Below are positions 24,686 to 60,769 of a stretch of DNA of 64,000 nt, piece after piece; position 1 is the stretch's first letter, and each line of letters opens with the position of its first letter. Location of the stretch: assembly GCA_051313645.2 (NCBI GenBank), contig JBNRSN020000021.1:37882001-37946000 (forward strand). The letters are read 5' to 3'. The translations under genes were made by a program, and so were the position numbers. Under the pieces are notes generated by a model that was given only the letters and a program-made list of their open reading frames with translations, was not told the origin of the DNA and made no database searches. This DNA comes from Centroscyllium fabricii. Its lineage: Eukaryota.

Positions 24686-24943
24686 TGTGGTAAACCGGTA
24701 ATACTGTTTACCACTAATACTGTATTGTATATAGTTACCTCTTGCCCACCTGGGATCTACCTGGGATGCCTCAGCCGGCTCCGCCTCCTGGCTCCACCCA
24801 CAGACTGTGGTATAAAGGTGGCAGCCCTGCTGACCTCGTGGCATTCCAGGACCAGATAGTGACAAGACCTGTACTCCAGTTCTTTGCTAATAAAAGCCTC
24901 AATTACTTAACTTTGTCGACTCACTGTAATTGATCGTGCATCA
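24686..24943 (+). mobile_element. Solo LTR (Gypsy, related to the B and E LTRs)
   Basis: TG...CA ends, TATAAA, AATAAAAGCCT motif shared with the B and E LTRs, 5-bp TSD TCCCG. Confidence 0.85.
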
Positions 24944-29560: not shown

Positions 29561-31576
29561 TGTGGTAATCGTGTAATATAATACGCGCAATGGGTCCCCC
29601 GGTACGCGGATAAGGCCAGACCGCTCCTCAAGGCCGACGTCTTCCCCCTCTCGGCCGAAGCCCAAACGGCATTAGCCCGGATCAAGGAAGACATCATCAA
29701 GGCGACCAGTAAAATTTCTATGATTCTATGATTCTATGCACGCCGTTGAGGAGTCCATTCCCTTCCAGGTGGAGAGTGACGCTTCGGACTTCGCCTTGCC
29801 GCCACCCTGAACCAGGCAGGCAGGCCTGTAGCGTTCTTCTCCCGGACCCTACAGGGACCCAAAACTCGCCACTCAGCGGTGGAAAAGGAGGACCAGGCCA
29901 TCATGGAGGCAGTGCGCTACTGGCGTCATTATCTGGCCGGTAAGCGTTTTACCCTGCTCACCGACCAACGGTCGGTGGCGTTTATGTTTAACAATAAACA
30001 ACGGGGTAAAATCGAGAATGATAAGATCCTTCGGTGGCGGATCGAACTCTCGACATACGAGTATGACATTCTTTACCGTCCAGGCAAGCTCAACGAACCC
30101 CCGGACGCCCTGTCCAGGGGAACGTGCGCCAGCGCCCAGCTTGACCGGCTGAAGGCCCTCCACGATCGCCTCTGCCACCCGGGTGTCACCAGACTCGCCC
30201 ACTTCGTCAAATCCCGTAGCATCCCCTACTCCATCACGGAGATAAAGGCTATGACCAAAGAGTGCCCTGTCTGTGCCGAGTGCAAACACCAATTCTACAG
30301 GCCAGACACGGCACACGTCATCAAAGCCACCCCGCCCCTTTGAACGCCTGAGCGTGGACTTCAAAGGCCCCCTCTCCTCCACTGACCGCAACTCTATTTC
30401 CTTACGGTCATGGACGAGTTCTCACGCTTCCCCTTTCCCTTCCCCTGCCCAGATATGACGAGCGCAACGGTGATCAAACACTTCACCACGCTGTTCGCCA
30501 TTTTCAGTCTGCCCAGCTACATCCATAGCGACCGGGGGTCGTCGTTCATGAGCGACGAACTGCGTCAGCTCCTGCTTCAGAAAGGGGTTGCCTCAAGCAG
30601 AACGACCAGTTACAACCCCCGGGGGAACGGCCAAGTAGAAAGGGAGAACGGGACCATCTGGAAGGCAGTCAACCTAGGCCTGAAATCCAGAGGCCTTCCA
30701 GTCTCCCGTTGGCAGGAGGCCCTCCCAGACACGCTCCATGCCATCCGCTCTCTGTTGTGTACCGCCACTAACTCCACACCTGATGACCTGTTGTTTTCCT
30801 TCCCCAATAAGTCGACTTCGGGGACGGCACTCCCACTGTGGCTCACAGCGCAGGGGCCAGTATTGCTTAGGAAGCACGTCCGCGGCCACAAGACCGACCC
30901 CCTGGTGGAACGGGTGCACCTGCTCCACGCCAACCCACAATATGCTTACGTGGCATTCCCGGATGGGCGCGAGGATACAGTCTTGATCAGGGACCTGGCG
31001 CCCGCCGGGAGCACTAGGGCAGAACCCTCGGTCGAGCCTCAGCTCGACCAGCCACCACCCACCGAATACTGGCCCCCATATACACACACACCGGGGCCCT
31101 CAACACCACCGATCGACGACCCGGGATCGGACACCGCACTGCTGGCACCGTTGGTGGAGAGCTCGATCCCGGCTCTGCAACCAGCACCACCATCGCCGGC
31201 ACCCCGGCGGTCCCCCAGGCAGACGCGACCGCCGGAGAGACTGATAACGCAATCCTAATTGATTATGGACATATAGAGATCTTTTCTTTCTCCCAAAGGC
31301 ACGTTCACCCCGCCGGACTTGTTTTTAAAGAAGGGGTGAATGTGGTAATCGTGTAATACCACTGTAAATAGTTGCTGGTTCGCCTGTACTGTATTGTAGG
31401 CCAGGTCAGCCATACCCCTAACTCCTCCCCTCAGGTCGGAGCATATAGGTGAGTGCTGACCTGCCCCCGCTCATTCTTCACCTTGACCTCATCAGGAGAC
31501 CAGCTCCATTCTTAGTTAATAAAAGCCTGTAGTTTAGGTAACGACTCGTTTTTGTGTATTAATTGACGATACATCA
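29561..31576 (+). mobile_element. Gypsy element E (same clade as B), deleted: 18-nt 5' LTR stub, RNase H-integrase remnant, PPT, 3' LTR 31341-31576
   Basis: TGTGGTAATCGTGTAATA at both 29561 and 31341; EAVRYWRHYLAG, HPGVTR, HSDRG and GNGQVER motifs with frameshifts; PPT AAAGAAGGGGTGAA. Confidence 0.9.
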
Positions 31577-31917
31577 AGATGAAAGTCTCCTCTGGCTACA
31601 GATTATAAGGAATCTCAAATATGGGACATTCTGGTTTTATATAAACATAAAACTGGCCACAAATTTGCACTAAATTACCTATTTCACTCAGAGGCGCTAG
31701 AAAACTGCTTGGTATAGGAAGTGGAATAATTCATAAATGGTCCATTTGGAGGGAATACTTCCAAGATTGGGGTAAAGACACATCTGGCCTATGCTACATG
31801 TGACCAGGGTGCGCTTGATAAAAACACTGGCCGACAAAAAGGAACTGGACATCCGTACCTTGGTGATGAGCACAAACATGCATCAAAAAACAACATTTTA
31901 AAAGGAACTACACCAAC

Positions 31918-36444: not shown

Positions 36445-36900
36445 TGTAACCTTCAATAACGTCCTCGGAGTCGAGTAGTAGGTTAGAACAATCAGGCTTT
36501 TATTCACTACACCTGGAACATGCACCAGCAAGTTGACTGTCCCCGGGAATGGCATGGGGGATGGGAGCAGTCACTTATATACCACCTCCTGCGGGGGAGG
36601 AGTCGTGGGCGGAGCCAACCTGGGCATGTCCCAGGTATCATCTCACAGTATAGTACAGTACAGGTATAGGTTACATCGTGATACATGGTAGTTAAATATA
36701 TACAAGTGATATACACGTTTATCACATTCACCCCTTCTTTAAAACGAAAGTACGGCGGGGTGAGAAGACTAATAATTACAAGTGAGAGAGAGGAAAAAAA
36801 TTATTTCTTTAAAACAAAGTTCTTTTGACTACAGATTGAGTCTTTCAGGCGGTCTGGTTGACCGCGTCGATCTTCACACCGCTGGTGGTGCCTGTGGTGT

Positions 36901-38327
36901 TCATGGTCGTGAAGCGGCTGGTTGTGTCGGTTGCTCCATTGATGCCGGTCGACTAGTGGTGGTTGTTATGTAACTTCTGGGTGGCGGTGGTGCCCTCCTT
37001 ATTCTGACAGCAGGGGGCGCGTTCTCTCCTTCGTCCTCTGACTCTAGGGGGCGCGCGTTGTGGATCCAAGCTTGGGGCCGGGTCGTGCTGCTCGCAGGTG
37101 CCTTGTGGACATACTGGGGTACTGGGCCCACGTGTTGGGGAGCGTACTTTGGCTTCGGCGGCATGTGGAGCGTCACAGGACGTTTTGGGTGCGCGGGCTG
37201 CTGGGCGGGGCTTCTTGGAAGCGCGGGCTGCCTGGCGGGGTTGGGTTTGGGGACTCCTGCTGGGGCTAGATCCTTTATGGACACGGTGTCCTCCCTCCCG
37301 TTGGGGTATGCTATGTATGCGTACTGGGGATTGGCGTGCAGGAGGTGGACCCGTTCGACTAGGGGATCTGCCTTGTGTCCCCTCACATGCTTCCGAAGCA
37401 GGACCGGTCCCGGAGATAGTAGCCATGATGGTAGCGAGGTCCCGGAAGCTGACTTCCTAGGGAAGGCAAAAAGTCTTTCGTGAGGGGTGGCATTAGTGGC
37501 AGTACACAGGAGGGACCGGATAGAGTGGAGTGCTTCAGGGAGGACGTCCTGCCATCGGGTGACTGGGAGGCCTTTAGACCGTAGGGCTAACTGGATGGCT
37601 TTCCAGACCGTGGCGTTCTCCCTCTCTACCTGCCCGTTCCCCCGGGGGTTGTAGCTGGTAGTCCTGCTAGTCGCGATGCCTTTTGCTAGCAGAAACTGAC
37701 GCAGCTCGTCACTCATAAAAGAGGCCCCCCGGTCACTATGGATATAGTTGGGGTACCCGAACAGGGAGAAGATGCTATTAAGGGCTTTGATGATGGTGGC
37801 GGAGGTCATGTCCTGGCAGGGAATAGCGAAGGGGAAGCGGGAGTACTCATCTATAACGTTAAGGAAGTACACATTCCTATTGGATGAGGGAAGGGGCCCT
37901 TTAAAATCGACACTGAGTCGTTCAAAGGGGCGAGTGGCCTTGATCAAGTGCGCCCGGTCTGGCCGGTAGAAGTGCGGCTTGCACTCCGCGCAGACCTGGC
38001 AGTTGCTGGTCAGAGTCTTGACCTCCTCGATGGAGTAGGGGAGGTTGCGGGACTTCACAAAGTGAACCAACCTGGTGACCCCCGGGTGGCAGAGGTCATT
38101 GTGAAGGGTTTGGAGGCGGTCAGCCTGTGCGCTGGCACAGGTACCGCGGGATAGGGCGTCTGGGGGTTCGTTAAATATCCCGGGCCGGTATAAGATATCG
38201 TAATTGAACGCAGATAGTTCAATTCTCCACCTTAATATCTTGTCGTTCTTTATTTTACCCCGTTCCTTGTTGTTGAACATGAATGCGACTGATCGTTGGT
38301 CAGTCAGTAAGGTAAAACGTTTGCCGG
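36901..38327 (-). pseudogene. Element B pol 3' part (end of RNase H, integrase)
   Basis: Resumes GKRFTLLTDQRS; HHCC (HNDLCHPG...CQVC), SVDFKGP, HSDRG and GNGQVER. Confidence 0.9.
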
Positions 38328-40171
38328 TGTAATTATTTGTTGCGAGCTATGGGGCACTATAACCTCATTCATGATGGGTCCGGGATCCCCATCCACGGTG
38401 TCGGGACCCCGCCTCGTCTCTCGAACCGGACACATGGGTGCTGTAAGGTCGCAATATTCCAAGTCAAAACGGATTTACAAAGACCAGAAACGAAGGGATG
38501 GAGTATACATGTTTCTTTTATTGTACAATGGCAGACAGGACAGGCTGCGGCCTGATCAGAGAAAAAGGGGCCTCCAAGATGGCCGCCGGACCACATGGCA
38601 TAGTGTAAAACGAAACCAAAACCCAATTCGGAAAAGCCCGCGAAGTAGCCAGACATGAAGGCGCTGTTAAACCTGTAAATAAGTAGCCAGCCCCTTAGAA
38701 ACCGCTCAGCCCCACAAAGAAATGCACCCAGTTAAATAAGCACCCGATAAAGCTGCAAATATTGAAATTACTGGCCGTTTAGCCAGACACAAGATTTACA
38801 CAGCAAGCCCGCATTAAAGCGATTAGCACCCTTGCAAAAACAATGGGGGCTCTAACGGAGAGGTTAGGGTGCCATCAAACCATTACCAGCAGGCTTGGCT
38901 GGACAAAGGAATGCAGTAACCGTTTTCAAAACACAATACCTGCCTAATGGGAAAGACATTAGCTTCACAGTATAACTGGCAGGACATTTCTACAATTCGC
39001 TCTCTTGGGATCTCTTCTTCATCTGTGGGCTCTCTGGAGAGGGCTCTCTTGGAAAGCGCTTGGAAACTCTTCACATCTCTGACTCTCTGGAAGAGGGGGT
39101 CTCTCGAATATCTCGCAGCGTGGAAATCTCTCTTGGGAAAGAGCTCTTGGAGAAGGCTTTTGGAGGCGACCTCTTGAAGCGGTGAGGTCCCTGAACTGAG
39201 CTTTAGCAGTAACTTTGGGTGGGCTCTCTGTTTTCGAAGACTCCAGTTCAGCTTTCTGGGTGCAGGGCAAGCAGGGTGCAGGCTCTGGCAGGACAGCAGA
39301 GTTGGGTCAGGGCAGTATCGCATCGGAAAACCATTGCTGGTGAGGTAGTTGGTTGTTGGGCCCCATTAGTAGCATCTTGTTGAACACGGCGATTAAGCTA
39401 GCGTCGGAAGAGTGGGAAAGCAAGTAGGCTAGCAGCCCGTTACAGTTCGGCTTGAGAGGGCAGGATCGGCATACCCCAGGGTCCGGTTCAGCCAGGGAGA
39501 CGGTGCGGTTGGTGCGAGGAGATAGAGCAGCCTCGAGGAACCCGTCCGGGACCAGCCCGAGCAGGAGCGACCGCCGCCCAAAGGGAGAAGACAACAAGTG
39601 GACTCCCGAATCTTCCACAGCCACGTGACGACCGACGCTGCAGCCGAGGAAACGAAGGACTTCGTAGCAGACCCCGAGTATTACCGAGTGGTGAGCATGT
39701 GCCTCGATCCTACACACCTGGACATAGCTAGGCAATAGAGGGAAGGGTGGTTTATTTGGGGTGTATTTGTAGAGTCATTGCCCCGATTTACGATGTGCCG
39801 TGCGTTCCCCATCCTATAAGTTACCTGTGTATGTGCATATATATATATATCTGTTTGGGAAACAATTGTTGGTGTATCATATTGTGTCGTTCCGATGAAA
39901 TACAACCTAACTGCTGTAAATATATCCTGTGGTGTAATAAAATCTTCCAACTTTGCAAACTTTTATTCGAGTCTAAATCTGAGTCCAATCGGTATCCATC
40001 TCGTCTCTCTCTTCTCCTGCACCTAAGTCCAGCGTCTAGAACCGTAAGGGTGAGCGATTCGAACCGCTCGCGGGGGAGGAGGTTATTGCGCGAGGCCTAG
40101 CGGACTGCTAGCGCAAGGCAGTAACGGACCCCAAGTCGTACATAAAATATACGGCGCACGCTCCTTACAGA

Positions 40172-42094
40172 ATGGCGACCGCGGCAGGACGTTGGCAGCA
40201 GGAGAGAGATATATTGGACTCAGCCTTGAATAAAAGAAGCGTAATGGAGGAAAGGATTGCTGATTATGTGTTCAGTAAGGTGAACTTAACAAAGCAGTGG
40301 ATTGGGGACCTGTTGGCAGACAAACGTCCACTGGATGCAGCTATCCGTTGGATGGGTAGCAAGGGGCATAAGAAAGCAGTAGAAAAAGCAGTATGGCTAA
40401 TGTGCTATAAAAGGCAGGTCCAGCTTTCGGACCAGGTGATTGCGGCGCAGACCGCGCAGATCAAGGGGTTAGTCCTAGAAGTGGAGGAAAAGGTCTCAGA
40501 GGGGCAGCGGTTAATCACCGCGCTAGAGGCTCTGAATAATGAGCGCCAGGTGAAGACCAACCGCCATGAAGCTAGGGTTGAGCTCCTAGAAAGACAAGTA
40601 GTAGAGGCCATGTCAAGTGAAGGGAAGCTCAGGGAAAGGTGCGTCCGCCTAAGTGGCCAATTGAAGGCACAGGAGGAGGATTTACTGGGGATGAGGGCAG
40701 CGTACAAAATGTCCCTTGAGACCAAATATGAGGACGCCGATCATGGCGCTTGTTTAAAGGAGATTCAGGACCTTAGGGAGGCCCTGAACAGGTCAAACGG
40801 TCTGGTGTGCCTCATCGACCCATCGGTGGGTGAGGTAAAGGTGGTTAAGGAACCCCCGAAGCCAAAGCTAAGGAGGAGGGCGCCGGAGGCACCAGCCCCC
40901 GCGCTCCCCGCGCGATCACCCCACTATACGCAAGCATGGGAGAAAGGGGACAGAGAGGAGGTGGCGGCGAAGGTTCCCAAAATGGGGAATCCAGACCCGG
41001 CACCCATGTGTCCGGTTCGAGAGACGAGGCGGGGTCCCGACACTGCGGCTGGGGATCCCGGGCCCATCTTGAATGAGGTCATAGTGCCCCATAGCTCGCA
41101 ACAAATAAGGAGCATGATAGGGCATTTTAGGAAGCTGTCCGCAGCAGGCGATCCGTCCCTGCATTTTAGGGAGGTCGAACAGGCAGCAGCGGTAAACGGC
41201 TGTGACGAAGGAGAGCAAGCCAGGATGTTGCTTTTCTCTTTAGATAGCTCTATCCTTCAGTGTCTCTCCGACGAGAGCAAGAGGGGGGATAAGGGCTATG
41301 ACGACCTACGGGATGAGGTCTTAGAAGTGCTGGGAATGGACGATGAAGGTCCGTTTGTAAGGCTGGGTAGGACCGTGCAGATGGAGGGAGAACCCCCACG
41401 GGTTTTCGCCGGGAGGCTGTGGCCTGTGTATCAGCGCAGCTGCCCAGATGTACCTGCACGGGCTGTTTTGCGCGATGCCGGGAGAGCCCAGTGGCTCCGG
41501 TGTTTAGTTGCCAACAGCCTACCCGCCGTTAGAGAGCAGGCTAAGGTGTGGTTTGACCCCACCGATGCTCAAACCACAGAGGAGATGGTCCTCAACCGAC
41601 TCACGGTTGGGTACAAAAACACGAGGAGTTTGGTGATGCACTGCGATAAGGGGAAGGTGTATGCGACTAACGCAGACGCCCCAGCGCAGAGAGAGTGGTA
41701 TCAGGAGGGGGGCAACCCGGGGCAGTCTACATGTCATAGATGCGGGAAGGCAGGCCACTGGCGCAGAGACTGTAGAGCCCCGTGGAGGGAGGTCAAGGAA
41801 AGAGCTCCCGCAGCCCCAGCCCGAGCACCCACTCCCACAGGAGGTGCCGGCGCCACTCTAAGTCCCGAAACAATTGAGTCCATGCTGGAAGCCATGAAGT
41901 TTTATATGACTTCCCAGGGGAAGGTAGCCCCAACCCGAGCACCCGCTCCCACAGGAGGTGCCGGGGCGACTTTAAGTCCCGAAACGATAGAGTCCACGCT
42001 GGGGGCCATGAAGTTGTATATGGCTTCCCAGGGGAAGGCAGCGGTGGCCACCGGTTCCGCAGGCACCGCAGCCCCTCACGTGGAAGCCCAATGA
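40172..42094 (+). CDS. Element C Gag (640 aa)
   Basis: Coiled-coil N-terminal region, CCHC knuckle CHRCGKAGHWRRDC, 38-aa C-terminal duplication; homologous to element D gag. Confidence 0.88.
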   Translation: MATAAGRWQQERDILDSALNKRSVMEERIADYVFSKVNLTKQWIGDLLADKRPLDAAIRWMGSKGHKKAVEKAVWLMCYKRQVQLSDQVIAAQTAQIKGLVLEVEEKVSEGQRLITALEALNNERQVKTNRHEARVELLERQVVEAMSSEGKLRERCVRLSGQLKAQEEDLLGMRAAYKMSLETKYEDADHGACLKEIQDLREALNRSNGLVCLIDPSVGEVKVVKEPPKPKLRRRAPEAPAPALPARSPHYTQAWEKGDREEVAAKVPKMGNPDPAPMCPVRETRRGPDTAAGDPGPILNEVIVPHSSQQIRSMIGHFRKLSAAGDPSLHFREVEQAAAVNGCDEGEQARMLLFSLDSSILQCLSDESKRGDKGYDDLRDEVLEVLGMDDEGPFVRLGRTVQMEGEPPRVFAGRLWPVYQRSCPDVPARAVLRDAGRAQWLRCLVANSLPAVREQAKVWFDPTDAQTTEEMVLNRLTVGYKNTRSLVMHCDKGKVYATNADAPAQREWYQEGGNPGQSTCHRCGKAGHWRRDCRAPWREVKERAPAAPARAPTPTGGAGATLSPETIESMLEAMKFYMTSQGKVAPTRAPAPTGGAGATLSPETIESTLGAMKLYMASQGKAAVATGSAGTAAPHVEAQ

Positions 42095-45000
42095 CTAAGA
42101 CCCGCGCTGCCCATTTACCTGTGTCCGCTCCGTTATGATGCATGGAGGAGACCTCTGGTGGAAATGGAGGTGGAGAGACAGGAGGGGAATTATCTGTTGG
42201 ATACGGGGGCCTCATGCACCGTGATCCACACAGAGAAGCCGTTTAATTCCCCAATGTCCACCGGAGTCCCTTTTGCATTAGCAGGGTTTATGGGCAAGGA
42301 ACAGGGGGGCGCGCGCTCTAGGCCACTCTCCGTTCAGTTAGGAGCGCTCCACACCACTTGGGAGTGCATCCTGCTGAAATGGGAAGAAGGAGGTGGCAGA
42401 GGTATAGTAGGAGCAGATTTTCTGGGAGCACACGGGATCATGATCGACCTAAGGAACCACTGTTTATGGGCAGCCGAAAGTGGAAGAGGTGAAGTTGTGG
42501 TCATAGGGGAGGAAGAAGAGAAGGGGACCCTATGTACCGTGAAGCCGGCCGGAGGTTACGACCTCGATAGTTTGTCCAAGGGGGTTCCGGCCGACATGCA
42601 GGCGGCCGTAACGTGTAATATAAACGCCTTTGCGACCCACAAGCACGATTGTGGGAGGGTCTTAGGGTTTGAGGTTAGCATACAGGGGCATCCCATGTCC
42701 CGACCCTAGAAACAGTATAACTTCCCTAAGGAAGCGGAGTCCGATCTGGAGACAGCGATGTCTTCACTGGTGCGGCAGGGCGTGTTGAGGCCGATAGCCA
42801 CCCATGTGAACTCTCCGTTGTGGCCCGTACGGAAGCCAGACAACTCATGGAGAGCCACGGTGGATTATCGGGTCCTCAACAGTAACATCCCCGCCTGCGC
42901 GCCCACGGTGGCAGCAGTTGCCGACCTGATCGGGAGTATTCCCGCTTCCGCCACGGTGTTTACGGTGTTGGATATTTCCAACGGGTTTTGGTCCATCCCG
43001 CTGCGGAGGGAGGATCAGTACAAGTTTGCCTTTACGTTTAAAGGGCAGCAGTACACGTGGAATTGTTTGCCGCAAGGCTTCCACAACAGCCCCAGTATTT
43101 TCCACCAGTGTATGGCAGGGAGTTTAAAGGAGTTTAGTCAGCCCAATCAGATAGTGCAGTATGTGGACGACTTACTCCTGTTCACGGACACGAGGGATGA
43201 GCACTTGCCATTGCTAGGCGAGCTGCTGGAATTACTGGCTAGGAAGGGTTTCAAAATAAACCCGAAGAAGGCACGGATTGGCCAGACAGAAGTAAAATTT
43301 CTGGGTTTGACCATCCGCGCGGGGGAAAGGGCCATAGATAAGGCCAGGAGGGAGTCGGTACAGGAGCTACCGATCCCGACCACCGTAAAGGGTGTGAGGT
43401 CCTTTTTGGGATTGACCGGGTATTGCAGAGACTTCATTGAGGACTATGCTGCCACAGCAGCTCCGCTGCTCCGACTCTTACATAAGGGAGTTGGGTGGTC
43501 ATGGGATGAGGGCTGCCAGGCGGCGTTTGAAAAGTTGAAGAGGGACTTGCAAACCGCGCCAGCCCTGGGGGCCATAGAGGGGGGGAAGGAGTTTTCCTTG
43601 GAGCTAGCAGCCGGCGAGGACAGCTTGAGCGCGGTGCTGCTCCAAGAGCGGCACGGCAAGCTGCGACCGGTGGTGTATTCCTCAAGGGTACTCACGGAGG
43701 TGGAGAGGGGGTTCTCCAACTGCGAACGGCATCTTTTAGCCACGCATTGGGCCGTGAAGAGATCATTAATCTTCACGGGAACCTCTCCCATTACTCTCCT
43801 CACCCACCACACACCCACCAGGATGCTCCTGGATGGGAGGATAAAGGATGGGACCGTGAGCAGCGCGAGAATTGCGCGCTGGACTCTTCTTTTGTCCCAA
43901 ATGGATTTAAAGGTGGAGGGTTTGTGCGAGCCTAAGCACGCAGCAAATTTGATGTACCCCGGAACGACCCATCGGTGTTCCGTGGAGGGGGTATGGGAGG
44001 TGAACATAGGTCTGCGAGCCGGGATACATCCCACGGGCCGCGAGATCTATGTTGATGGTTCCAGCACGGTGGTGGCTGGCGAACGACTCACGGGCTGCGG
44101 GATTTTTGACCCTAAGGCAGACATTGCCTTGGCGGTTAAGCTTCCCCGCACCATGAGCGCGCAGCAGGCCGAGCTGTCGGCGGTGGCGTACGTGGTAACC
44201 CACCCCGAGACCTTCCCAACCCCGTACACAATTTGCTCCGATAGTATGTTTACGTGCAACTCGTGCACGGAGTATCTGGCCATATGGTCACGTCGCGGGT
44301 ACACTTCCGCGGACGGGCGGCCATTAACGGTAAAGCCCTTGTTGGAGAAGATCCTAGCGGCAGTAGGGGAAGAAGGGGAGATCTTCATCCACAAGGTGAA
44401 GGCTCACTCTTCCACGGAACCACGTGGGGGAGGCAATCAGCGGGCGGATGCGCTGGCCAAGGAGGGTGCTCGGGAAGGCACTTTCTGGGACCCCTACGGG
44501 TCCGGACCTGTGGCAGCGATCCGGGATAAGGAGGGGAATCGCCCCAGGGTTCCCCTGCCTTTGGATCTCAAAATGGTCCAAAACCAGGATCCCGTTTTAA
44601 AAGCTGTCCTCAAAGCTATTAGTGAGGACAAGCAGGTAGAGGGCCCATACAATAGGGCGACCCTCTCCGTTAAGGAAGGAATGTTGTTCAGGGAGGAACA
44701 GTGGGTTGTGCCGCAGCAGCACAGGAGGGAATTTCTCCAATTGGCCCACGAGGGTCCAGGAGCAGGGCACCCCGGGCCAGAGGTTACGTGGCAACGGGTG
44801 GAGCAGGCAGGGTGGTGGCCGGGACTCAGGGAAGATGCCCGCGAGTTCTGCGCCAGCTGCCTGGTGTGCGCTGCGAACAACCCAGACCCCCAAAGGAGGA
44901 AAGCGCAGATGGGGCACGTCAGGAGGGTGGAGGGACCGTGGCAGTCGATACAAGTCGACTATATAGGGCCCCTACCCACCGCCCAGGGAGGCTATAAATA

Positions 45001-46735
45001 TTGTCTCGTCCTGGTGGACGTGTTCTCCAAATGGGTAGAAGCTTTCCCCTGTAGGACGGCTACGGCCTTAGGTACTGCCAGGATTTTGGTCCGGGAGGTG
45101 TTCTCACGGTGGGGACTTCCCCGTTTTGTGGAGTCCGACCAGGGGAGTCACTTCACCGGCCAGGTCATGCAGAACACCCTCATGCTCCTAGGCATTGAAG
45201 GGAAATGGCACGTAGCGCACAACCCCCAGTCGTCAGGGATTGTGGAACGCATGAACCGTACCCTTAAGGAACGGTTGAGGAAAGAGGCGATGGGCTCGCC
45301 CCAGAAATGGGCGGAGATCCTGCCTTTAATCCTCATGGGGATCAGGGCCAGCCAGTCGAAAAGTACGGGATATTCCCCGCACGAGCTAATGACTGGAAGG
45401 GCCATGCGGACCCCCACTCATGTACTAGCTCCGGTGCTCACGGAAGGACAGCTCGAGGAGGTAAAGAAGGACAGGTTTGCCCAAAATCTGTTCGAGCACC
45501 TAAAGCGAGTACACGAGCAGGCAGCAGGGAACATGGGCAGACAGCATCAGGGGAACAAGCTGTTGCTGGAGCCCCGAAGAACGCAAGAATGGGAAGTGGG
45601 AGACCTGGTCATGGTGAGGAACTATGCCCGGGTCGGGAGTTTAGAGCCACTGTACATGGGGCCCTACAGCATTGTAGATAAGGCAAGCCCCATGGTTTAT
45701 GCGGTGAAGGTGCCCCGACGCACAAAGTGGTTTCATATAAACCAATGTAAAATGTATAAGTCGGGCACGCAGGGGTCGACCACAGGGGCAAGCCCTGTGA
45801 GTAGGAACGCCCAGCCAAGTGCAGGACCACAGGTCGCGCAGGCAGGTAAAGTAGCCTGCGTGAGAGGAGAGGCCCCGATGGAGGAGAGGAGGGTCTCTCG
45901 TGCTGTGTGGGATTCAGATGGGGAGGAGCCGGACCAACACGACCAAGTGTTGGATCCGATGGACCAACACGACCAAGTGTTGGACCCGATTGGCCAACCC
46001 GACCAAGGGTTGGACCTGATTGACCTACGCGACCCAGTGCTAGAGTCAATCACAGGGGAGGAGGAGGGGTCTGAGGACGGGGGTTCCGTTCTCGACTCGA
46101 ATGCCGACGAGGTAGGGATAGCGGGCGGAGACTCACCACCTGAGGAGATAGGTGAGGTGAGGTCAGAAGCCGCAAGAGATCCCAGTCCCGGGGAAGCGAA
46201 GCTGAAGGAGGGAGGGTCGGTGCTGGCAGCTGTGAAGGAGTCACAGGCTGCAGCACGATCCGGCCCGGCCTTCAGTTCGTCGACGAGGCGAGAGGAGGGA
46301 GCGTCGATGCGTGCAGATGTGACGGGGTCACAGGCTGCAGCACGGCCTGGCCCGGTCCTCAGGTCGTCGGCCCAGGGGGCTCTCGGTCCCAGGGAAGCGA
46401 AGCTGGAGGGAGAGGGGTTGGTGCTGGCAGCTGTGAGGGAGTCACAGGCTGCAGCACAACCTGGCTCGGTCCTCAGTTCGTCGGCCCAGGGAGCAGTACC
46501 TAAAGGCACCCTCCGTCGATCGGAAAGGGTACCCCCGCCCAGGAAAGCTTGGCCAGAACCGTCATATGCCCTCAGGTACAGGAAAAGCCCCCGCAAAAGG
46601 ATAATTATCCACCCCCGACAAGCAGCGCCAGGCTGCGGAGAATCAAAAGCAGCGACAGGCTGCGGGGAACCAAAGGGAGGGGTCAGCAATGCACCGCCAC
46701 GGGGAGCGGCCCACTACGACCCTGACAGGGGATAG
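42095..46735 (+). CDS. Element C Pro-Pol (protease, RT, degenerate RNase H, second RNase H, integrase, GPY), in frame with gag; one internal TAG at 42707-42709
   Basis: LLDTGAS; NSPLWPVRKPD, LDISNGFW, LPQGFHNSP and YVDD; IYVDGSS...AQQAEL...SDS...KVKAH...GNQRAD; HHCC, QVDYIGP, ESDQGSHF, SSGIVERMN and GPY. Confidence 0.9.
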
Positions 46736-49358
46736 GTAGGCCGCCCGGGAGAGGCGGCACTGTATATAATGAGAAATAAGTTTGGTAGTGTCAAGGGAGT
46801 AGCCCGAATTAATTTTTGAATTTTGTTAAAGGTGTGACGTTTAGCATAAAGGTGAAGGGGAGTGTTTAGGTAATATGGGATCTGTCCAGGAGGCGTGCAC
46901 ATCTCACCACAGCCAGGCGCTCTTGGGAGGCCGGCAACCCCTTTGTTTAATTACAGAACCCAGAGAGGCGGGGATTCTGATGACGCTTGCGGTCATCAAA
47001 GATGGACTGGCCTGTCGGGGCCACACCGGGGAGTAAGGAGCAGATGCCCAGGGCGGCTGGGAACGGACCCAATGGAGCATCCCAGCACGTCGGAATCTGC
47101 TTGTGGAGAGACTTGGTTTTCTGTGCCCCGGATCGAGACCATCGCACCCAGGACCGGCGCTATCATCGGTAGAAGGACTTACTTCCGTTGAGGGATAGGA
47201 AGATCCCAGCGAGCCGATGGTGGTGGCTGCGGAAGACCGCCAGAACACTGTAAAAACTTTGGGACAAATGGGGGGATTGATGAGGGGAGATATGTGTGCT
47301 TTATATTTTCCGGATGGTTGTGTGATGTCTCTGTCAGATAATAAATGATATGAACAGGTGGAGACGAAGGCATCGGCCTGGCAGACGTGGAAGGAACCAG
47401 GAGGTGTAAGGAATGGTTGTGTAAATATACATGGTTGTGTAAATATACGTTGCCCAGGGTAAAGGCAATGCGAGGTTGATCAAAGGGAATGGGAACCGCA
47501 TGTGTCATGGGGCAAGAGTTAATTTAGGTAACCAGGAGAGTTGAGGTGTGGAGAATCGGGAATCTTGCTCAACCTTTATTAATTGATTCGCTAAGCGGGG
47601 TTATGCTAATCAACAGGAGGGACTGTAAGGTCGCAATATTCCAAGTCAAAACGGATTTACAAAGACCAGAAACGAAGGGATGGAGTATACATGTTTCTTT
47701 TATTGTACAATGGCAGACAGGACAGGCTGCGGCCTGATCAGAGAAAAAGGGGCCTCCAAGATGGCCGCCGGACCACATGGCATAGTGTAAAATGAAACCA
47801 AAACCAAATTCGGAAAAGCCCGCGAAGTAGCCAGACATGAAGGCGCTGTTAAACCTGTAAATAAGTAGCCAGCCCCTTAGAAACCGCTCAGCCCCACAAA
47901 GAAATGCACCCAGTTAAATAAGCACCCGATAAAGCTGCAAATATTGAAATTACTGGCCGTTTAGCCAGACACAAGATTTACACAGCAAGCCCGCATTAAA
48001 GCGATTAGCACCCTTGCAAAAACAATGGGGGCTCTAACGGAGAGGTTAGGGTGCCATCAAACCATTACCAGCAGGCTTGGCTGGACAAAGGAATGCAGTA
48101 ACCGTTTTCAAAACACAATACCTGCCTAATGGGAAAGACATTAGCTTCACAGTATAACTGGCAGGACATTTCTACAATTCGCTCTCTTGGGATCTCTTCT
48201 TCATCTGTGGGCTCTCTGGAGAGGGCTCTCTTGGAAAGCGCTTGGAAACTCTTCACATCTCTGACTCTCTGGAAGAGGGGGTCTCTCGAATATCTCGCAG
48301 CGTGGAAATCTCTCTTGGGAAAGAGCTCTTGGAGAAGGCTCTTGGAGGCGACCTCTTGAAGCGGTGAGGTCCCTGAACAGAACTTTTGAGCTTTAGCAGT
48401 AACTTTGGGTGGGCTCTCTGTTTTCGAAGACTCCAGTTCAGCTTTCTGGGTGCAGGGCAAGCAGGGTGCAGGCTCTGGCAGGACAGCAGAGTTGGGTCAG
48501 GGCAGTATCGCATCGGAAAACCATTGCTGGTGAGGTAGTTGGTTGTTGGGCCCCATTAGTAGCATCTTGTTGAACACGGCGATTAAGCTAGCGTCGGAAG
48601 AGTGGGAAAGCAAGTAGGCTAGCAGCCTGTTACAGTTCGGCTTGAGAGGGCAGGATCGGCATACCCCAGGGTCCGGTTCAGCCAGGGAGACGGTGCGGTT
48701 GGTGCGAGGAGATAGAGCAGCCTCGAGGAACCCGTCCGGGACCAGCCCGAGCAGGAGCGACCGCCGCCCAAAGGGAGAAGACAAGTGGACTCCCGAATCT
48801 TCCACAGCCACGTGACGACCGACGCTGCAGCCGAGGAAACGAAGGACTTCGTAGCAGACCCCGAGTATTACCGAGTGGTGAGCATGTGCCTCGATCCTAC
48901 ACACCTGGACATAGCTAGGCAATAGAGGGAAGGGTGGTTTATTTGGGGTGTATTTGTAGAGTCATTGCCCCGATTTACGATGTGCCGTGCGTTCCCCATC
49001 CTATAAGTTACCTGTGTATGTGCATATATATATATATCTGTTTGGGAAACAATTGTTGGTGTATCATACTGTGTCGTTCCGATGAAATACAACCTAACTG
49101 CTGTAAATATATCCTGTGGTGTAATAAAATCTTCCAACTTTGCAAACTTTTATTCGAGTCTAAATCTGAGTCCAATCGGTATCCATCTCGTCTCTCTCTC
49201 TTCTCCTGCACCTAAGTCCAGCGTCTAGAACCGTAAGGGTGAGCGATTCGAACCGCTCGCGGGGGAGGAGGTTATTGCGCGAGGCCTAGCGGACTGCTAG
49301 CGCAAGGCAGTAACGGACCCCAAGTCGTACATAAAATATACGGCGCACGCTCCTTACA

Positions 49359-50178
49359 GTGCCGGGTCCGGATCCCCTACTCTGGGAACCTTCGCCGCCA
49401 CCTCCTCTCTGTTCTCTTTCTCCCATGCTTGCGTATAGTGGGGTGATCGCGCGGGGAGCGCGGGGGCTGGTGCCTCCGACGCCCTCCTCGGCCTTGGCTT
49501 CGGGGGTTCCTTAACCACCTTTACCTCACCCACCGATGGGTCGATGAGGCCATTTGACTTGCTCAGGGCCTCCCTAAGGTTCTGGATCTCTGTGAGACAG
49601 GCGCTATGATCAGCGTCCTCATACTTAGTCTCGAGGGACATTTTATATGCTGCCCTCATTCCCAGCAAATTCTCGTCCTGTGCCTTTAATTGGCCACTTA
49701 GGCGGACGCACCGTTCCCTGAGCTTCCCTTCACTCGACATGGCCTCTACCACCTGTCTCTCTAGGAGCTCAACCCTTGCCTCATGGCGGCTGGTCTTCAC
49801 CTGGCGCTCTCTATTTAGAGCCTCGAGTGCGGTGATTAACTGCTGCCCCCCTGAGACCTTTTCCTCTACTTCGAGTACTAACCCTTTGATCTGCGCGGTC
49901 TGCGCCGCAATCACCTGGTCCGAAAGTTGGACCTGCCTTTTATAGCACATAAGCCATACCGCCTTCTCCACTGACTTCTTATGCCCCTTGCTACCCGTCC
50001 AACGGATAGCTGCGTCCAGTGGACGTTTGTCTGCCAGCAGGTCCCCAATCCACTGCTTTGTCAAGTTAACTTTGCTAAACACATAATCGGCAATTTTCTC
50101 ATCCATCTGGTTCCTCTTATTCAAGGCTGAGTCCAACACATCTCTTTCCTGCTGCCAGCGTCCCTTCGTGGTCGCCAT
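49359..50178 (-). pseudogene. Element D gag N-terminal part
   Basis: MATTKGRWQQERD... aligns with C Gag; broken at PDPA|PMCPV by the insertion of C. Confidence 0.88.
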
Positions 50179-51917
50179 TTCTGTAAGGGGTGTGCGCCGT
50201 GTATTTTATTCACGACTTGGGGTCCGTTACTGCCTTGCTCTAGCCGTCCGCTAGGCCTCGCGCAATAACCTCCTCCCCCGTGAGCGGTTCGAATCGCTCA
50301 CCCTTACGGTTCTCGACGCTGGACTTAGATGCAGGAAGAGAGATGAGATGTATAATGATTGGACTCAGATTGACTTTGAATAAGGGTTTCAAAAATTGGA
50401 TGATTTTATTACAGTGAGACGTAGGTTCATATACAGCAGTTAACTTGTACGTCATATAACAAAACACAGTATGAAATACAAACTTCGTAGCCCAATTATA
50501 TATATATATATATGCGAATACATGAATAACTTATAGGATGGGGAACACACGGCACATCGTAAATTGTGGCAAGCACTCTATAAATTCAACCAAGTAAACC
50601 ACCCTCCCCTCTATTGCCTAGCTATGTCCAGGTGTGTAGGATCAAGGCACATGCTCACCACTCGGTAATACTCGGGGTCAGCTACGAAGTTCTTCGTCCT
50701 TTCGGCTGCAGCGTCGGTCGTCACGTGGCTGTGGAAGATTTGGGAGTCCACTCGTTTGCTTCTCCCTCTTGGCGGCGGCCGTGTCTGCTCAGGCTGGCCC
50801 TGGGCGGGTTCCTCAAGGCTTCTCTACCTCCTCGCACCAACCGCACCGTCTCCCTGGCTGAACCAGACCCTGGGGTATGCCGATCCTGCCCTCTCGAGCC
50901 AAACTGTAACAAGTCTTTTTCGAACTCACTCGCTTTTACCCATGCATCGAACGCCAGCCCTTGTGGTGCCAGACAACCGACTATCTCTCCAGCGATGGCC
51001 CAGCCCAGATGCGATGCCACTGCCCTGCCGGAACCTGCACCCTGCTCGCCCTGCACTCTGCTCGCCCTGCACTCTGCTCGCCCTGCACCCAGAGATCTGA
51101 ACGGGAGTCTTCGAAGGGAGAGCCCACCCAAAGTCACTGCTAAAGTTCAAGAAGTCCTTCAAGTTCTGCAAGAGAACTCTACCTAGTTCCAAGAGCTTCC
51201 CAAGAGCTCCAACCGCTTCCAAAGAATCCGAGATCTGAGCGCTAGAGACCTCACCGCTTCAAGAGGTCGATTCCAAGAGTAAAGTCAGCCCTCTCCAGAG
51301 AGCCCGCGGAAGAAGAAGAAGAGAAGAGATCGAACTGTAAAATGTCTAACAGTTATACTCAGAAAAATGTTGTGCCTAATGTCTTTCCAATCATTGCCAT
51401 GTATTGTCCCATTTCAAAACGGTAACTGCTTCTTTGTCCAGCTAACCTGCTGAAATGGCTTGAGAGCAGCCCTAACCGCTTCTGTGAGCGCTGCATTATC
51501 TAAAGAGGGTGCAAATCGCTTCTGCTAAGTTTGCTGTGCAGTTTCTAAGCCTGGCTATTTAGGGCCAGTTAGTCCATATTTGCGATATATTGGGTGTTTA
51601 TTCTCTGGGTGCAATTTCTTTGTTGGGCTAAGCGGTTCTGAGGGGAGCTGGTTAGTTCTTTACAATCGAATACTGGGTCTTGGCGCCCCCAAGTCTGGGT
51701 TTTCGCGCACTTTCTGCAAGGCTTTGAAAATATATATGTGGTTTCGTTTTCGGCTCTGGCCGTTAGGTCATGTGGTCCGGCGGCCATCTTTTGAGGCCCC
51801 TTTTCTTTGATCAAGCCGCAGCTTGTTTCTCTGCTGCTAATAAAAAAATGCTGAATCCATCCATCTGTCTCTGGTCTTTATGAATCCTTTTTAACTTGGG
51901 AATATTGCGACCTTACA

Positions 51918-54437
51918 CCGGCCAGGTAGTGCTTCCAATGCCGCACTGCTTCAACAATGGCCTGGGCCTCCTTTTCGACTGAGGAGTGATGGGTCTCGGG
52001 GCCCTGGAGGGTACGTGAAAAGGAGGCCACGGATCTGCCCGCCTGGTTAAGGGTGGCGGCCAGGGCAAAGTCTGATGCATCGCTCTCTACCTGAAATGGG
52101 ACGGACTCATCCACAGCGTGCATCGTGGCTTTTGCAATATCGTTTTTAATTCTGCAGAACGCCGAGTTGGCTTCTGCAGAAAGGGGAAAAGAGGTCGATT
52201 TAAGTAGTGGGCGAGCTTTGTCCGCATAATTAGGGACCCACTGGGCATAATAGGCGAAAAATCCCAAACACCGTTTAAGGGCTTTGGGGGAGTGGGGGCG
52301 GGGGGGGGGGGGTGAGCTCCATGAGGGGGCGCATGCGGTCCGGGTCTGGACCGATGACTTCATTCTCCACCACGCTGCCGAGGATGGCCAGGCGGCCGGT
52401 GCTAAATACACATTTCTCCTTATTGTACGTTAAGTTCAGGGTTTTGGCCGTGTGGAGAAATTTTTGGAGGTTGGCGTCATGGTCCTGCTGATCATGGCCG
52501 CAGATGGTCACATTATCAAGATACGGGAAAGTGGCTCGCAGCCCGTACTGATCAACCATTCGGTCCATCTCCCTTTGGAAGACCGAGACCCCATTCGTGA
52601 CGCCAAACGGCACCCTAAGGAAGTGGTAGAGGCGACCGTCAGCCTCGAAGGCTGTATAAAGACGGTCCTCTGGGCGGATGGGAAGCTGGTGATAAGCCGA
52701 TTTAAGATCGATCGTGGAGTACACTTTAAATTGGGCGATTTGGTTCACCATGTCCGCTATCCGGGGGAGGGGGTAGGCATCTAGTTGCGTGAACCGGTTT
52801 ATGGTCTGGCTGTAGTCCACAACCATCCGGTTCTTCTCTCCGGTTTTTACTACCACTACCTGCGCTCTCCAGGGGCTATTACTGGCCTCTATGACCCCCT
52901 CTTTTAGGAGGCGCTGCACCTCAGATTTTATAAATGCCATGTCCCCAGCACTGTAGCGCCTACTTTTGGTGGCGACGGGCTTGCAGTCTGGTGTGAGGTT
53001 GGCAAAGAGGGATGGAGGGGCAACCTTAAGGGTTGAGAGGCCACAGGTAGTGTGCTGGGGGTACCGCCTTGAGCCGCGGTTTCTGACCGTGAGTGAGGGA
53101 AGGGGTCCGCCAAATGCCATCGTAACGCTCTGGAGGTGGCACTGGAAATCCAGTCCCAGGAGTAGGGGGGCGCAGAGCTGCAGCAGCACGTAAAAACTAA
53201 AATCGTTAAACATTGCGCCCTGGACATTAAGTGTTACAATGCAGCGCCCGGTGACGTCAGCAGATTCCGACTTGGACGCCATAGATATTCTCTGGCGCGC
53301 AGGGATTACTCTAAGGGAGAGGCGCTTTACAGTACTTTGGTTTATAAAACTTACTGTGCTCCCGCTGTCGAACAGGCACACCACCTCTTTACCGTTGATT
53401 TCCACCGGCATCATAGATTTCTCCAGCGGTTGAGTCTTCCTCTGGTCTATGATCATTGATGCTAACACCGGGTCCTCCGAGTTGTCTTGATCCGGATAGT
53501 AGTCCTCCGAGTTCGCTCCCCAAGATGGCTGCCGCCATGTGGTGTACTGTGGAGGTGGAGGCTGAGTCCAAGATGGCCGCTGTTGCTGCTGCTGCTGCCA
53601 CGAGGGATACTGAGTGGGGGATGGGTGAGCCCAATATGGCTGCTCCCATGTTCCACACGCGGCGCTACCCAGTTTTGATTTAATGCTAGTGTTTTTACAG
53701 ACCTTCGCATAATGTCCTTTCTTGTCGCATTTCGAGCAGGTCGCTTCTCTAGCAGGGCAGCTGCGTCTTGAGTGCTGAGATTGTCCACAGAAGTAGCATT
53801 TGGCTGCCGTTTTCGCGTGGGCAGCTGTGATTAGTTCTTCTGCCGGTCGTTGCGCCGGTACTGTCCAAGATTGCGGGGCTGGGCCTGTATAGTTACTTGA
53901 GTATGAGGATAAGTCCGTTGAGGCCCTATCCAGCGTGTGCCCCAAGTCTGTAGTCGCCTGTAAGTCCTGGCCGTTCTGCTCCAGCAGTCTCTGCCTGACA
54001 TAGTCCAATTTTAAGCCTGTTACGTAAGCGTCTCTGATGAGGCTGTCTACATGGACTAGGGCCGTTAGCGCTCTGCAGTCACAGTCCCGCGCCAGTACTC
54101 TGAGGGCTCTTAGGAACTCCACACTTGACTCACCGGTTTGTTGCTTTCTGGTGGCGAGTAAATGTCTAGCGTGGACTACATTTGGTGCCCGATTGTACTC
54201 CGTCTCGAGAATCCTGATGGCCTCTTGGAACGATGGGGCGTCCACTATCATCGAGTACACCTGAGGGCCCACCCGGGTGTGGAGGAGTCGCCGTTTTTGC
54301 TCTTCAGTCACTATGACCGCTGCATTGGCTCTGAGGTACCCTTCGAGCACATTGCGCCAGTGTGAGAAGGTGTTCGATGCTCCTGATGATCGGGGATCCA
54401 ATTCGAACACTGCTGGCTTGAGCATCGTGGTATCCAT
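51918..54437 (-). pseudogene. Element B gag-pol 5' part (Gag, protease, RT, start of RNase H)
   Basis: Two CCHC knuckles, FDSGS, SPWRAQVVVV, DLKSAYHQ, PFGVTNG, YLDN and VESDASD; frameshift in a poly-C run near 52300; broken at HYLAG by element D. Confidence 0.9.
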
Positions 54438-56070
54438 TTTTAACAGTAGTGAATAAAATTGTAACCTTCAATAACGTCCTCGGAGTCGAGTAGTAGGTTA
54501 GAACAATCAGGCTTTTATTCACTACACCTGGAACATGCACCAGCAAGTTGACTGTCCCCGGGAATGGCATGGGGGATGGGAGCAGTCACTTATATACCTC
54601 CTCCTGCGGGGGAGGAGTCGTGGGCGGAGCCAACCTGGGCATGTCCCAGGTATCATCTCACAGTATAGTACAGTACAGGTATAGGTTACATCGTGATACA
54701 TGGTAGTTAACTATATACAAGTGATATACACGTTTATCACAGCTCTCAACTGAACTTAAGGAGAAACTGGCTGTAATGGAGCACGAGAATGAGCTATTGG
54801 TGGAAGGGAAGGCGGAGTTGGAAAAAAACGTGATCGTATGATTGCTCAACTCGGGAAAATGGGTTGGTCGGAGGGGACAGCTGGAGAGCAAGGCTATCCA
54901 GAGACGACTGACGCTGAATGGCTTGGAAGCCACGGCTACCAGGTTGCTGATGAAAGCGATGGAAGCCATACAGTCGAGGAACCGACCACGAAAACAAAGA
55001 AACAACACCGTCGGAGAAACACGAGAAAGCATTGAATGTTTAAATTGTTAATAATGTTAGAGTGTTCAAATGTAGAGTAGAAGAAACTAGAGAAAGTTAA
55101 ATGTTAAAATTGTTTACAATGTTAGAACATTCAAATGTATATAGTGAATGCACCATGTTAAGGAAGTGTACAGGGTGACAAATGTACGTTGAATATTGTT
55201 GTATGAAAAAGGTTATACTGAGTTGAATGGGTTAAAAATGATGGTGAGCGACTAGCTAGCATCGAACAATGTATGTACAAAAGTTAATTGTTATATTTCT
55301 GAGTGTACTTATCATCGTACCCGTACGATTGAATTAGGAAGGGAGGAATGTGGTGTATGGACAACATACACCTATGTACTGATGATGCGAGACTCTACCT
55401 CGGCATCACCCCTCTATATCACCCCGGTGCTATACGATGGCCTGTGCCTTTAAGGATGGTGCTGGGCACTGCATCATGTGATGTTACCAGGCTGCAGTAC
55501 TCTTACCAGCCACTGTCGTGTGTATATAAGCTCGCATGTGTAGTTCCTGTTCAGTCTTCCATTAGTCCTCAGTCCTTGATGAGTTCGCTATTAGTCCTGT
55601 ACTAGACTAGGCTGTAAGCTAATGTAAATATGTTGGCGCGAGAAGCGCCACGGGTTAAGTTGTGATTTTACCATGCCAGTAAACATCACCCAGTTGAGAA
55701 CTTAACTTGAGTCTGTCGTTATTTGCCTCGTAATAACCTTAGACTTAACAATGGCGATAGATTTAACAAAGGGGAGGAAGGCCTGCATTACCACGTCGCG
55801 ATGTGCCGCAGAGCGTGGCGCTGCAGCATGCAATGCTAAGATATTCAGTCGCAGCACCCCAGGAAAGAGTGAGTGCTTCCAGTAGCGCCCCGCATCCTGC
55901 TTAGGGTGCTACAGCTGAATTTGCGGCACAACGGCGCTAACTTTTGCCGAGGTTAGCACGACTCAATTTTCCCCCCACAATGTTTACTGAACCAAGATTA
56001 AATGATATCCATGTTATCCACCCACAATTATCCCGGTTTCTAAATATATACATATTGTATTAATGCCTAC

Positions 56071-58315: not shown

Positions 58316-59109
58316 CCAGAAAGTTCACAACAGGTATATTCACAAGACGACATAGACTGGAGAACTCACGAGTGAGGGAAGTGGAGATTGATTTATGGTC
58401 ATGTCATGAATAGAAATGTTGATCTATCCTACTGATATCACACAGTTAAAATAGAAATTGAAATAATTTTTTTTGAAAACTAGCTGTTCCATTTTCAGAT
58501 CCCATGTGTGCAAACATTTCTATATGTATTATTCAGAGAATAATTTGAAGTTTTCTAAGCTGTGTTGGATTCACTGCTCAGAAAAGCTCACCAGGGGCCG
58601 GGGGGGGGCGGGGGGGGGGGGGGGGGGGGGGCGGGTGGGGGTACCTTATCTTTTTCAATAAGCTTTGCAGAGTAGAAGTGCCTCAGTGTCATTACCCTTG
58701 GGAACTCTCAACTTGATTGCATTAACTGACTCTTTCACTAACTCAAGTCACTCTGCATTACTGTTACCTTTAAAATGCACAAGCCAGTCACTGTATCATT
58801 ACATTACTTCTATATTTAATCTTCTGAGAATATAAATGGTAGATCCAAAACTGTAAGTGTTTTTAAGAGCCTTATTTTACTGCAGACATATGACACAAAT
58901 CTCAGTTGAGCTTATCACTTGCAGATGCACATGGTGTAAATTTGCTAATAGCTGATCACGTTGAATATGGGTTGTACAAGGGGGATAAACATACAAAAAC
59001 AGCCCAAGTTTTTGAAAATGATCACATTGATTGATTGATTATGTGTGTGTGAAACCCTTCTGGTCCTTCACGCAATTCCTCGTCAAGGCAAATGATCAAT
59101 AGTTAATAC

Positions 59110-60524: not shown

Positions 60525-60769
60525 CTGAATGTGGAAAAAGAAAAGAAGCAAGAATTGACTCTGCGCAAAGACTGATAAAAACAAATGCCAACACTCAACA
60601 TGAATCTTTGGTGAATTATTGAATTTCTTCTCATCTATCATGTTTCATTTTTATCATCAGGGCTGGGAGTGAGCAGAGCAAAATTTGCTCATAGTTATAT
60701 TCAAAGAAAACTTTAAACAGAATCCTCAACATGTAACATAATTGATTACATAAAATGAACAATAATTTG

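Follow-up and report, generated by a model that had tools for sequence, protein, structure and literature searches.

To our knowledge, Tf1 is the only element for which self-priming has been demonstrated, and the trait is regarded as characteristic of the Tf1/sushi group. In HIV-1, the poly(A) hairpin has a stem lying wholly inside R, and priming is carried out by a tRNA. According to the accessible text of three reports (PMC4600332, PMC10085805, PMC5341516), Tf1, Tf2 and Tj1 of fission yeasts and the Tf1/sushi chromoviruses have no tRNA site, and a primer site complementary to the LTR is located just past the 5' LTR. A self-complementary primer site outside the Tf1/sushi group has been predicted for the plant Ty1/copia TAR lineage (Houba, Osr-1), as stated in the accessible part of PMC6317226, and self-priming has also been predicted for the moss Tcn1 clade. 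In the accessible portions of the TAR and Tcn1 accounts, we found neither an internal primer nor an overlap with a poly(A) signal. The accessible portions of the literature, which also included PMC3601003, PMC13524379, PMC12440569 and PMC2871265, described self-priming only in Tf1/sushi, Tcn1 and the plant TAR copia elements; subscription papers and Repbase notes may mention the pairing. Whereas TAR belongs to another superfamily in plants and Tcn1 is chromoviral, the clade of element B described here belongs to the Ty3/gypsy elements of animals. It likewise has an LTR-complementary primer site just past the 5' LTR.

Structure of element B and its post-LTR sequence

Element B is located on the minus strand at positions 36445-54741 of the window (the whole 64,000-nt stretch of DNA analysed) and is a Ty3/gypsy retrotransposon without a chromodomain. 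Its 5' LTR (54460..54741, minus strand) is 282 bp long, has TG...CA ends and shows 99.3% identity to the 3' LTR (36445..36726, minus strand), and the element is flanked by a 5-bp target duplication (54742..54746; other copy, 36444-36440). Pfam domains of gag, protease, RT and the start of RNase H were found at 51918..54437 on the minus strand, where the frame is broken near 52275; this part is 97.6% identical to one full-length copy. Other LTR elements nested in element B (38328..51917) split its coding region at 51918/38327, and the remainder of RNase H, an integrase without a chromodomain and a polypurine tract adjoining the 3' LTR follow at 36727..38327 (minus strand). All three full-length copies of family B that were fetched were 4.69 kb long with a single 1342-codon frame. 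The LTRs with their TG...CA ends, the 5-bp duplication and the purine tract are Ty3/gypsy traits. Furthermore, the pol order was protease-RT-RNase H-integrase, and the RT was nearest to Ty3 among solved structures.

Tf1/sushi elements carry a chromodomain at the C terminus of the integrase, and chromodomain-bearing, sushi-like elements do exist in the same genome. In contrast, no chromodomain match was obtained at E 0.01 in the full-length copy of element B or in four relatives. The RT/RNase H identity between the element B clade and the sushi-like elements was 29%. In a quick RT/RNase H tree, which had only five outside rows, did not include Tf1 itself and was unrooted as to origin, the clade formed a group of 31 rows (SH-aLRT 100) separate from three sushi-like rows. 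Judged from its sequence, element B is no member of the Tf1/sushi group, although it would work like Tf1, and we infer that self-priming in its clade arose independently of that group.

The clade presumably resembles the Cigr-1 clade of animal Ty3/gypsy elements and is possibly identical with it. For the candidate clade name 'Selfy', no match was found in the literature searched. Members of the Cigr-1 clade have short LTRs, a single gag-pol frame and tunicate and mollusc hosts, and the protein relatives of element B include one from a tunicate. The clade is named in the accessible text of PMC6238403. The RT motifs of the element B clade were absent from the searched supplements of PMC6238403, PMC2871265 and PMC8556966.

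The 5' LTR of element B ends in TTACA, which is followed by a single A (54459..54459, minus strand) and then by a 13-mer at 54458-54446. This 13-mer is the exact reverse complement of 54525-54513 within the LTR, a stretch that contains AATAAA (54519-54514) and ends in AATAAAA. The gag ATG is located at 54437, 22 nt after the LTR, and TGG is absent there. In all of these points the original prediction, which had read the element as lacking a tRNA primer site, was correct. We refer to 54446..54458 (minus strand) as the primer-binding site, which complements the element's own LTR and not a tRNA 3' end, and to 54513..54525 (minus strand) as the arm. Exact complementarity and the covariation described below mark the arm, RNA nt 41-53, as the putative 3' end of a self-primer. 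The 53 nt that make up the rest of R and U5 (54460..54512, minus strand) start with a conserved GCC and are looped out by the duplex. Within the window, the 13-mer occurred only in both LTRs (second arm copy, 36510-36498) and, inverted, at the primer site. As in Tf1/sushi elements, the leader to gag is short, and the 1-nt offset is shared by non-shark relatives and by sushi-like elements. Unlike in the HIV-1 hairpin, the partner strand is here the primer site outside the LTR.

RNA folding of element B gave a pair probability of 0.66-1.0 for each pair of the duplex. In 99 relatives sampled from the genome, the loop spanned by the duplex was 48-62 nt long, and the mean pair probability of the duplex was above 0.7 in 82 of the 99 leaders. 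Tf1/sushi elements have a three-duplex 'pretzel' around the primer duplex; in the element B clade, helices were predicted within the loop, and these varied by family. Two partners are available to a CTCC(A) word located 4-6 nt upstream of the arm, namely an adjacent upstream GGAG and the gag start (ATGGAG). Pairing of the leader with the gag start codon, considered as evidence for transcription from upstream, was common, yet it did not covary in B-like families; the alternative pairings of this word would make a possible switch between translation and priming.

The nesting in the window resembles a Russian doll: a Mag-like element with 420-bp LTRs and a TGG-type primer site (33657-55768) encloses element B, which in turn encloses further LTR elements (38328-51917). 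One element with 1.7-kb LTRs (38441-49359) has two RNase H domains in its pol, one gypsy-type and one PF00075-type; its gag ATG lies 1-2 nt past the LTR and overlaps a TGG word, and its branch in the tree was long.

Covariation of the primer site with the LTR arm

Among the 30 best gag matches in the genome, the post-LTR 13-mer was kept in all 30 and the LTR arm was unchanged in 29. A family-free junction pattern, in which the fixed parts were duplex positions 1-5, the GCC that follows the arm and the end of the LTR, was found 238,193 times in the genome and its reversed form 56 times. Because the gag relatives keep the pairing and the junction pattern outnumbers its reverse to this extent, the pairing in element B is not due to chance.

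For covariation, we used 99 of the first 100 junctions listed, one near-duplicate having been dropped. At the free positions 6-13, 764 of 792 cells were Watson-Crick pairs, 9 were G-U and 19 were others; each position was Watson-Crick in 89-98 of the 99 copies, where the column make-up predicts 28-98%. Pairing stopped sharply at 13 bp, position 14 being Watson-Crick in 41 of 99 (31% expected). Seventy-five copies were perfect over the 13 bp, and these represented 26 different 13-mers. The primer sites comprised 43 different sequences, each following its own LTR arm, and an arm matched the site of another copy in 357 of 9702 cross-copy pairs. Because the sampled copies are related, the cells cannot be counted as independent events, in contrast to the many distinct matched pairs. 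The near absence of G-U and the strictly Watson-Crick covariation are explained if the primer is copied into the site, which fits a rewriting of the site. The covariation between the post-LTR sequence and the LTR that the original prediction had asked for was therefore present in this genome, and it was also present outside it, as described below.

The prediction had further specified the primer site that should belong to the LTR at 31342-31577, which is part of a plus-strand 3' fragment of the sister family C (29580..31577; arm, 31512-31524). The arm of family C differs from that of element B at two positions, both of which were compensated in its primer site, and the predicted site agreed with the observed one in 13 of 14 bases. 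Twenty family C relatives were fetched and nine had an intact 5' junction; four of these carried the exact predicted 13-mer and five differed from it by one or two bases. A third family of the clade is represented in the window by a plus-strand solo LTR (24686..24943; arm, 24883-24895) with a 5-bp target duplication, and a stingray gag query recovered further subfamilies with other matched pairs of arm and site. The sushi-like chromoviruses of this genome, with at least 5,777 junctions, had an 11-nt self-primer looped over 410-460 nt that also covaried between families.

A primer formed across a splice junction was considered and rejected. The LTRs have donor-like and acceptor-like words; at positions 12-13, however, the sites of family C and of two D subfamilies matched the unspliced arm and not the joint.

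These data also bear on priming by a host tRNA or tRNA fragment with an incidental LTR match. TGG was found in none of the 99 sampled junctions, and the longest match to 11 tRNA sequences was 6 nt, in a comparison that covered the Lys and Cys isotypes only and thus leaves this explanation some room. The 43 site sequences that track their own arms speak against any tRNA, and the covariation opposes a tRNA fragment in the same way; we regard tRNA priming as exceedingly improbable.

Named protein relatives of the clade were found in stingray, Trichinella, sea cucumber, tunicate, shrimp, woodlouse and aphid, and no relative was found in the viral contigs searched. The stingray protein was the nearest named one, and together with the SINE-like repeats of the genome it suggests that the host is a cartilaginous fish. 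The non-shark loci were taken from metagenome and MAG contigs that are presumably host-derived; 28 had a gag start, and four of these were too short upstream. Among the remaining 24, the same register held a perfect duplex of 10-17 bp in 20 (reached by 0 of 30 shuffles for each), one had a 9-bp duplex and three had no duplex. Together, the non-shark loci represented about 12 families. Some of the contigs carrying these animal-type LTR elements are filed as bacterial MAGs, which is likely to reflect host contamination.

The original prediction had offered, beside or instead of self-priming, a hairpin that hides the 5' poly(A) signal. In the present genome, AATAAA or ATTAAA was contained in the arm of 98 of the 99 sampled copies, and the arm thus often spans the poly(A) hexamer, unlike in Tf1/sushi elements; hiding the signal is a possible added role here. 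Outside the shark, one of the two hexamers was in the arm in 6 of 12 families and in none of the arms of the other six, three families having a hexamer located further downstream. Hiding is hence not the clade-wide reason for the pairing. Since half of the families lack the hexamer in the arm, what is conserved is the 1-nt offset, the length of about 13 bp and a TAAA-(G/A)CC border. A stronger version holds that the duplex mainly masks the 5' signal by means of sequence unique to the flank of the 5' LTR while another primer is used. Although the hexamer counts in this genome and in the six families fit such masking, the six others do not, and masking requires neither a fixed 1-nt offset nor a sharp 13-bp limit nor the near absence of G-U. 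Moreover, with TGG missing, there is no alternative primer site, and the integrated palindromes described below reveal DNA 3' ends in the primer site. Masking as the main function appears improbable to us.

Probable RNA start site and inverted by-product copies

A TATA box (TATATAA) is located at 54590..54596 and an initiator-like motif at 54561..54567, both on the minus strand. From these we infer that the RNA of element B starts at the A at 54565, 31 nt after the first T of the TATA box. The 40 nt from there to the arm (54526..54565, minus strand), which are unpaired with the primer site, would form the 5' part of the primer RNA; this leader was found copied as an inverted stretch in aberrant insertions. 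In the 99 relatives, a TATA-like motif lay about 70 nt upstream of the arm (91 of 99, with a loose pattern) and an initiator-like motif lay 39-40 nt upstream (87 of 99, at -36 to -42). In four sushi-like copies of the same genome, the 11-nt primer started about 30 nt after the TATA box, as is expected if the primer is the 5' end of the RNA (accessible text of PMC4600332 and PMC10085805). In Tf1/sushi elements the self-primer is the RNA 5' end, whereas that of the element B clade would lie 39-40 nt inside the RNA and measure 13 nt instead of the 11 nt of the four sushi-like copies. Inspection of the 12 non-shark families by eye revealed no TATA box or initiator at a constant offset.

In one sampled copy, the primer site continued into an inverted copy of the entire upstream LTR; TG...CA ends were present, together with a 5-bp duplication. 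When the genome was searched with a pattern for the main families, 787 such aberrant junctions reading from the primer site into the inverted upstream LTR were found (control, 0). The rate was about 0.55% (787 of about 142,000; 59 of the 99 sampled leaders fit the search pattern). The same rate would give about 30 cases among the sushi-like junctions, where 0 of 5,777 read four bases past the 11-nt primer; this control is not matched, as the sushi-like duplex is shorter and its loop is 410-460 nt long.

Ninety of the first 91 listed junctions were examined; in 20 of them, damage to the local LTR meant that the end had to be determined from the LTRs of other copies. Forty of the 90 ended within -21 to +20 of the initiator A, with 13 at 0, four at +1, two at +2 and no other position above two. 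When shared jump sites were merged, 12 of 33 ends fell at 0 to +2 (p 1.5e-6 versus uniform), and 10 remained after removal of one deletion and one likely duplicate. Past this stop, the by-products carried on in coding parts of the same clade (gag, protease, RT, RNase H or integrase), in either strand orientation and in some cases via microhomology, and five of the 40 short arms returned to the gag start. In family B, 16 by-product junctions were found, 15 of them distinct: eight ended 44-57 nt out (the start being at 53; 1 of 15 exact), three earlier and two at 79 and 84, and two more, one of which had a duplication, extended as far as the LTR start. In seven copies belonging to different subfamilies, the sequence jumped from the RNA start to one and the same place in gag, which may reflect either a recurrent switch or a spread non-autonomous form.

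In the other 50 of the 90, the inverted arm passed the RNA start into U3, and a DNA or 3'-end template was accordingly used in those copies. Of the 90, 16 were palindromes made up of LTR sequence only, with TG...CA ends and a flanking 5-bp duplication (exact in 15), 24 reached the LTR start with no visible duplication, and six crossed the inverted polypurine tract into internal sequence. Integrated palindromes require a plus-strand 3' end inside the primer site. In Tf1, according to the accessible text of PMC11042837, about half of the cDNA keeps a single-stranded copy of the PBS at its 3' end.

A stop at the start site requires an RNA template whose 5' end is located there and which is either joined to the primer site or annealed with it. 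The primer itself, still attached to minus-strand DNA, would be the simplest template of this kind. The same stops could also come from a plus-strand end in the primer site switching onto intact RNA; in that case, the stops map the RNA start and do not tell what the primer is. In either case, the by-products appear to place the RNA start upstream of the arm, unlike in the sushi-type elements of the same genome. The original prediction that the geometry differs from that of Tf1/sushi was thereby borne out by both the motif offsets and the by-products halting at the initiator.

These ends weigh on plain Tf1 geometry, in which a second start at the arm would make the arm the first 11-13 nt of the genomic RNA. 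Many arms have a YYAGT-like word, Tf2 has alternative start sites (accessible text of PMC5341516), and our start assignment covers the families of this genome. On the other hand, the by-products copy the 40-nt leader and halt at the upstream initiator, the bases upstream of AG (positions 12-13) covary as well, and AG is replaced in some families. We consider a start at the arm very unlikely.

A somewhat less remote alternative involves the arm copy in the R at the 3' end of either the same RNA or a second packaged one: paired with the primer site and cut after AAAA, it would let the 3' end of the genome prime, and the 40-nt leader would provide the strand-transfer overlap. The arm does occur in both LTRs, the transfer overlap would be longer, and the six inverted arms running through the polypurine tract indicate that annealing of the primer site to a 3' LTR template is possible. 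However, a primer whose 5' end lies at the start site predicts the observed peak of by-product ends there, and the high pair probability predicted in 82 of 99 leaders belongs to an intramolecular 5' duplex. Priming from the 3' R is thus, in our estimate, unlikely.

Proposed priming mechanism and its implications

The original prediction proposed self-priming from the AAUAAA region, and this is supported by the covariation, the lack of TGG in all 99 sampled junctions and the by-product copies. From these sequence patterns, priming by the arm in some form appears highly likely, and a capped 5' fragment of about 53 nt, cut just after AAUAAAA, is probably the self-primer. We propose transcription from the initiator, 39-40 nt before the arm, after which the arm (nt ~41-53) would fold onto the primer site across the 48-62-nt loop; in this genome, the duplex would also cover the 5' AAUAAA. 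The RNA would be cut directly after AAAA, probably by the RNase H of the RT as in Tf1, and the capped ~53-nt fragment, of which only the last 13 nt are paired, would prime minus-strand DNA at a distance of one base from the LTR edge. First strand transfer would rely on the short segment that separates the cut from the poly(A) site. Plus-strand synthesis would then copy the 13 paired bases of the primer, and the primer site would be rewritten from the arm in each cycle.

In Ty3 RT, about 13 bp separate the two active sites (accessible text of PMC5371799), and by analogy the 13-bp length of the duplex may be linked to this spacing. On the whole, we lean somewhat towards the broader view that an animal-wide, chromodomain-less Ty3/gypsy clade evolved its own self-priming, with an internal capped ~53-nt primer, a 13-bp duplex of the RT span, a helix that both primes and masks, and slips that would have produced hundreds of inverted and palindromic LTR insertions recording the RNA start. 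The inverted by-product copies and the start-site evidence drawn from them are new here.

If the proposed mechanism is true, an LTR clade that ranks among the most successful in this 7.2-Gb vertebrate genome, with about one 5' junction per 30 kb, replicates without a tRNA, and its relatives in rays, tunicates, echinoderms, crustaceans, insects and nematodes would be tRNA-free as well. The clade would also escape control through tRNA supply or tRNA fragments. An internal primer would end the rule that a self-primer is the first bases of the RNA and raises the question of how the RT picks the cut. From the genome sequence alone, the by-products allow the start site and the primer end of an LTR element to be mapped; they also account for one class of palindromic LTR insertions. 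Annotation tools based on the PBS would miss or mislabel the element B clade.

The poly(A) site was sought through retrocopies, which gave 16 matches at seven places; one verified true LTR copy placed the site about 15-17 nt after the arm, implying a short overlap for strand transfer. LTR breaks were also examined in 30 of 121 matches, a sample confounded by many nested insertions, and no peak was seen at the predicted cut: 4 of the 30 fell at +1 to +3 and 15 at +12 to +15. Junctions with the LTR ends of other elements and with SINE tails were frequent 12 to 15 nt past the arm, which suggests a preferred insertion site near the poly(A) signal's cleavage position, the poly(A) site, of the clade's LTRs.

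Finally, a serine-rich host exon of 512 codons was observed on the minus strand of the window at 59103-60641. We take it to resemble DLC1/STARD13-type RhoGAP genes, and the elements of the window may sit in an intron of the host gene that contains this exon.
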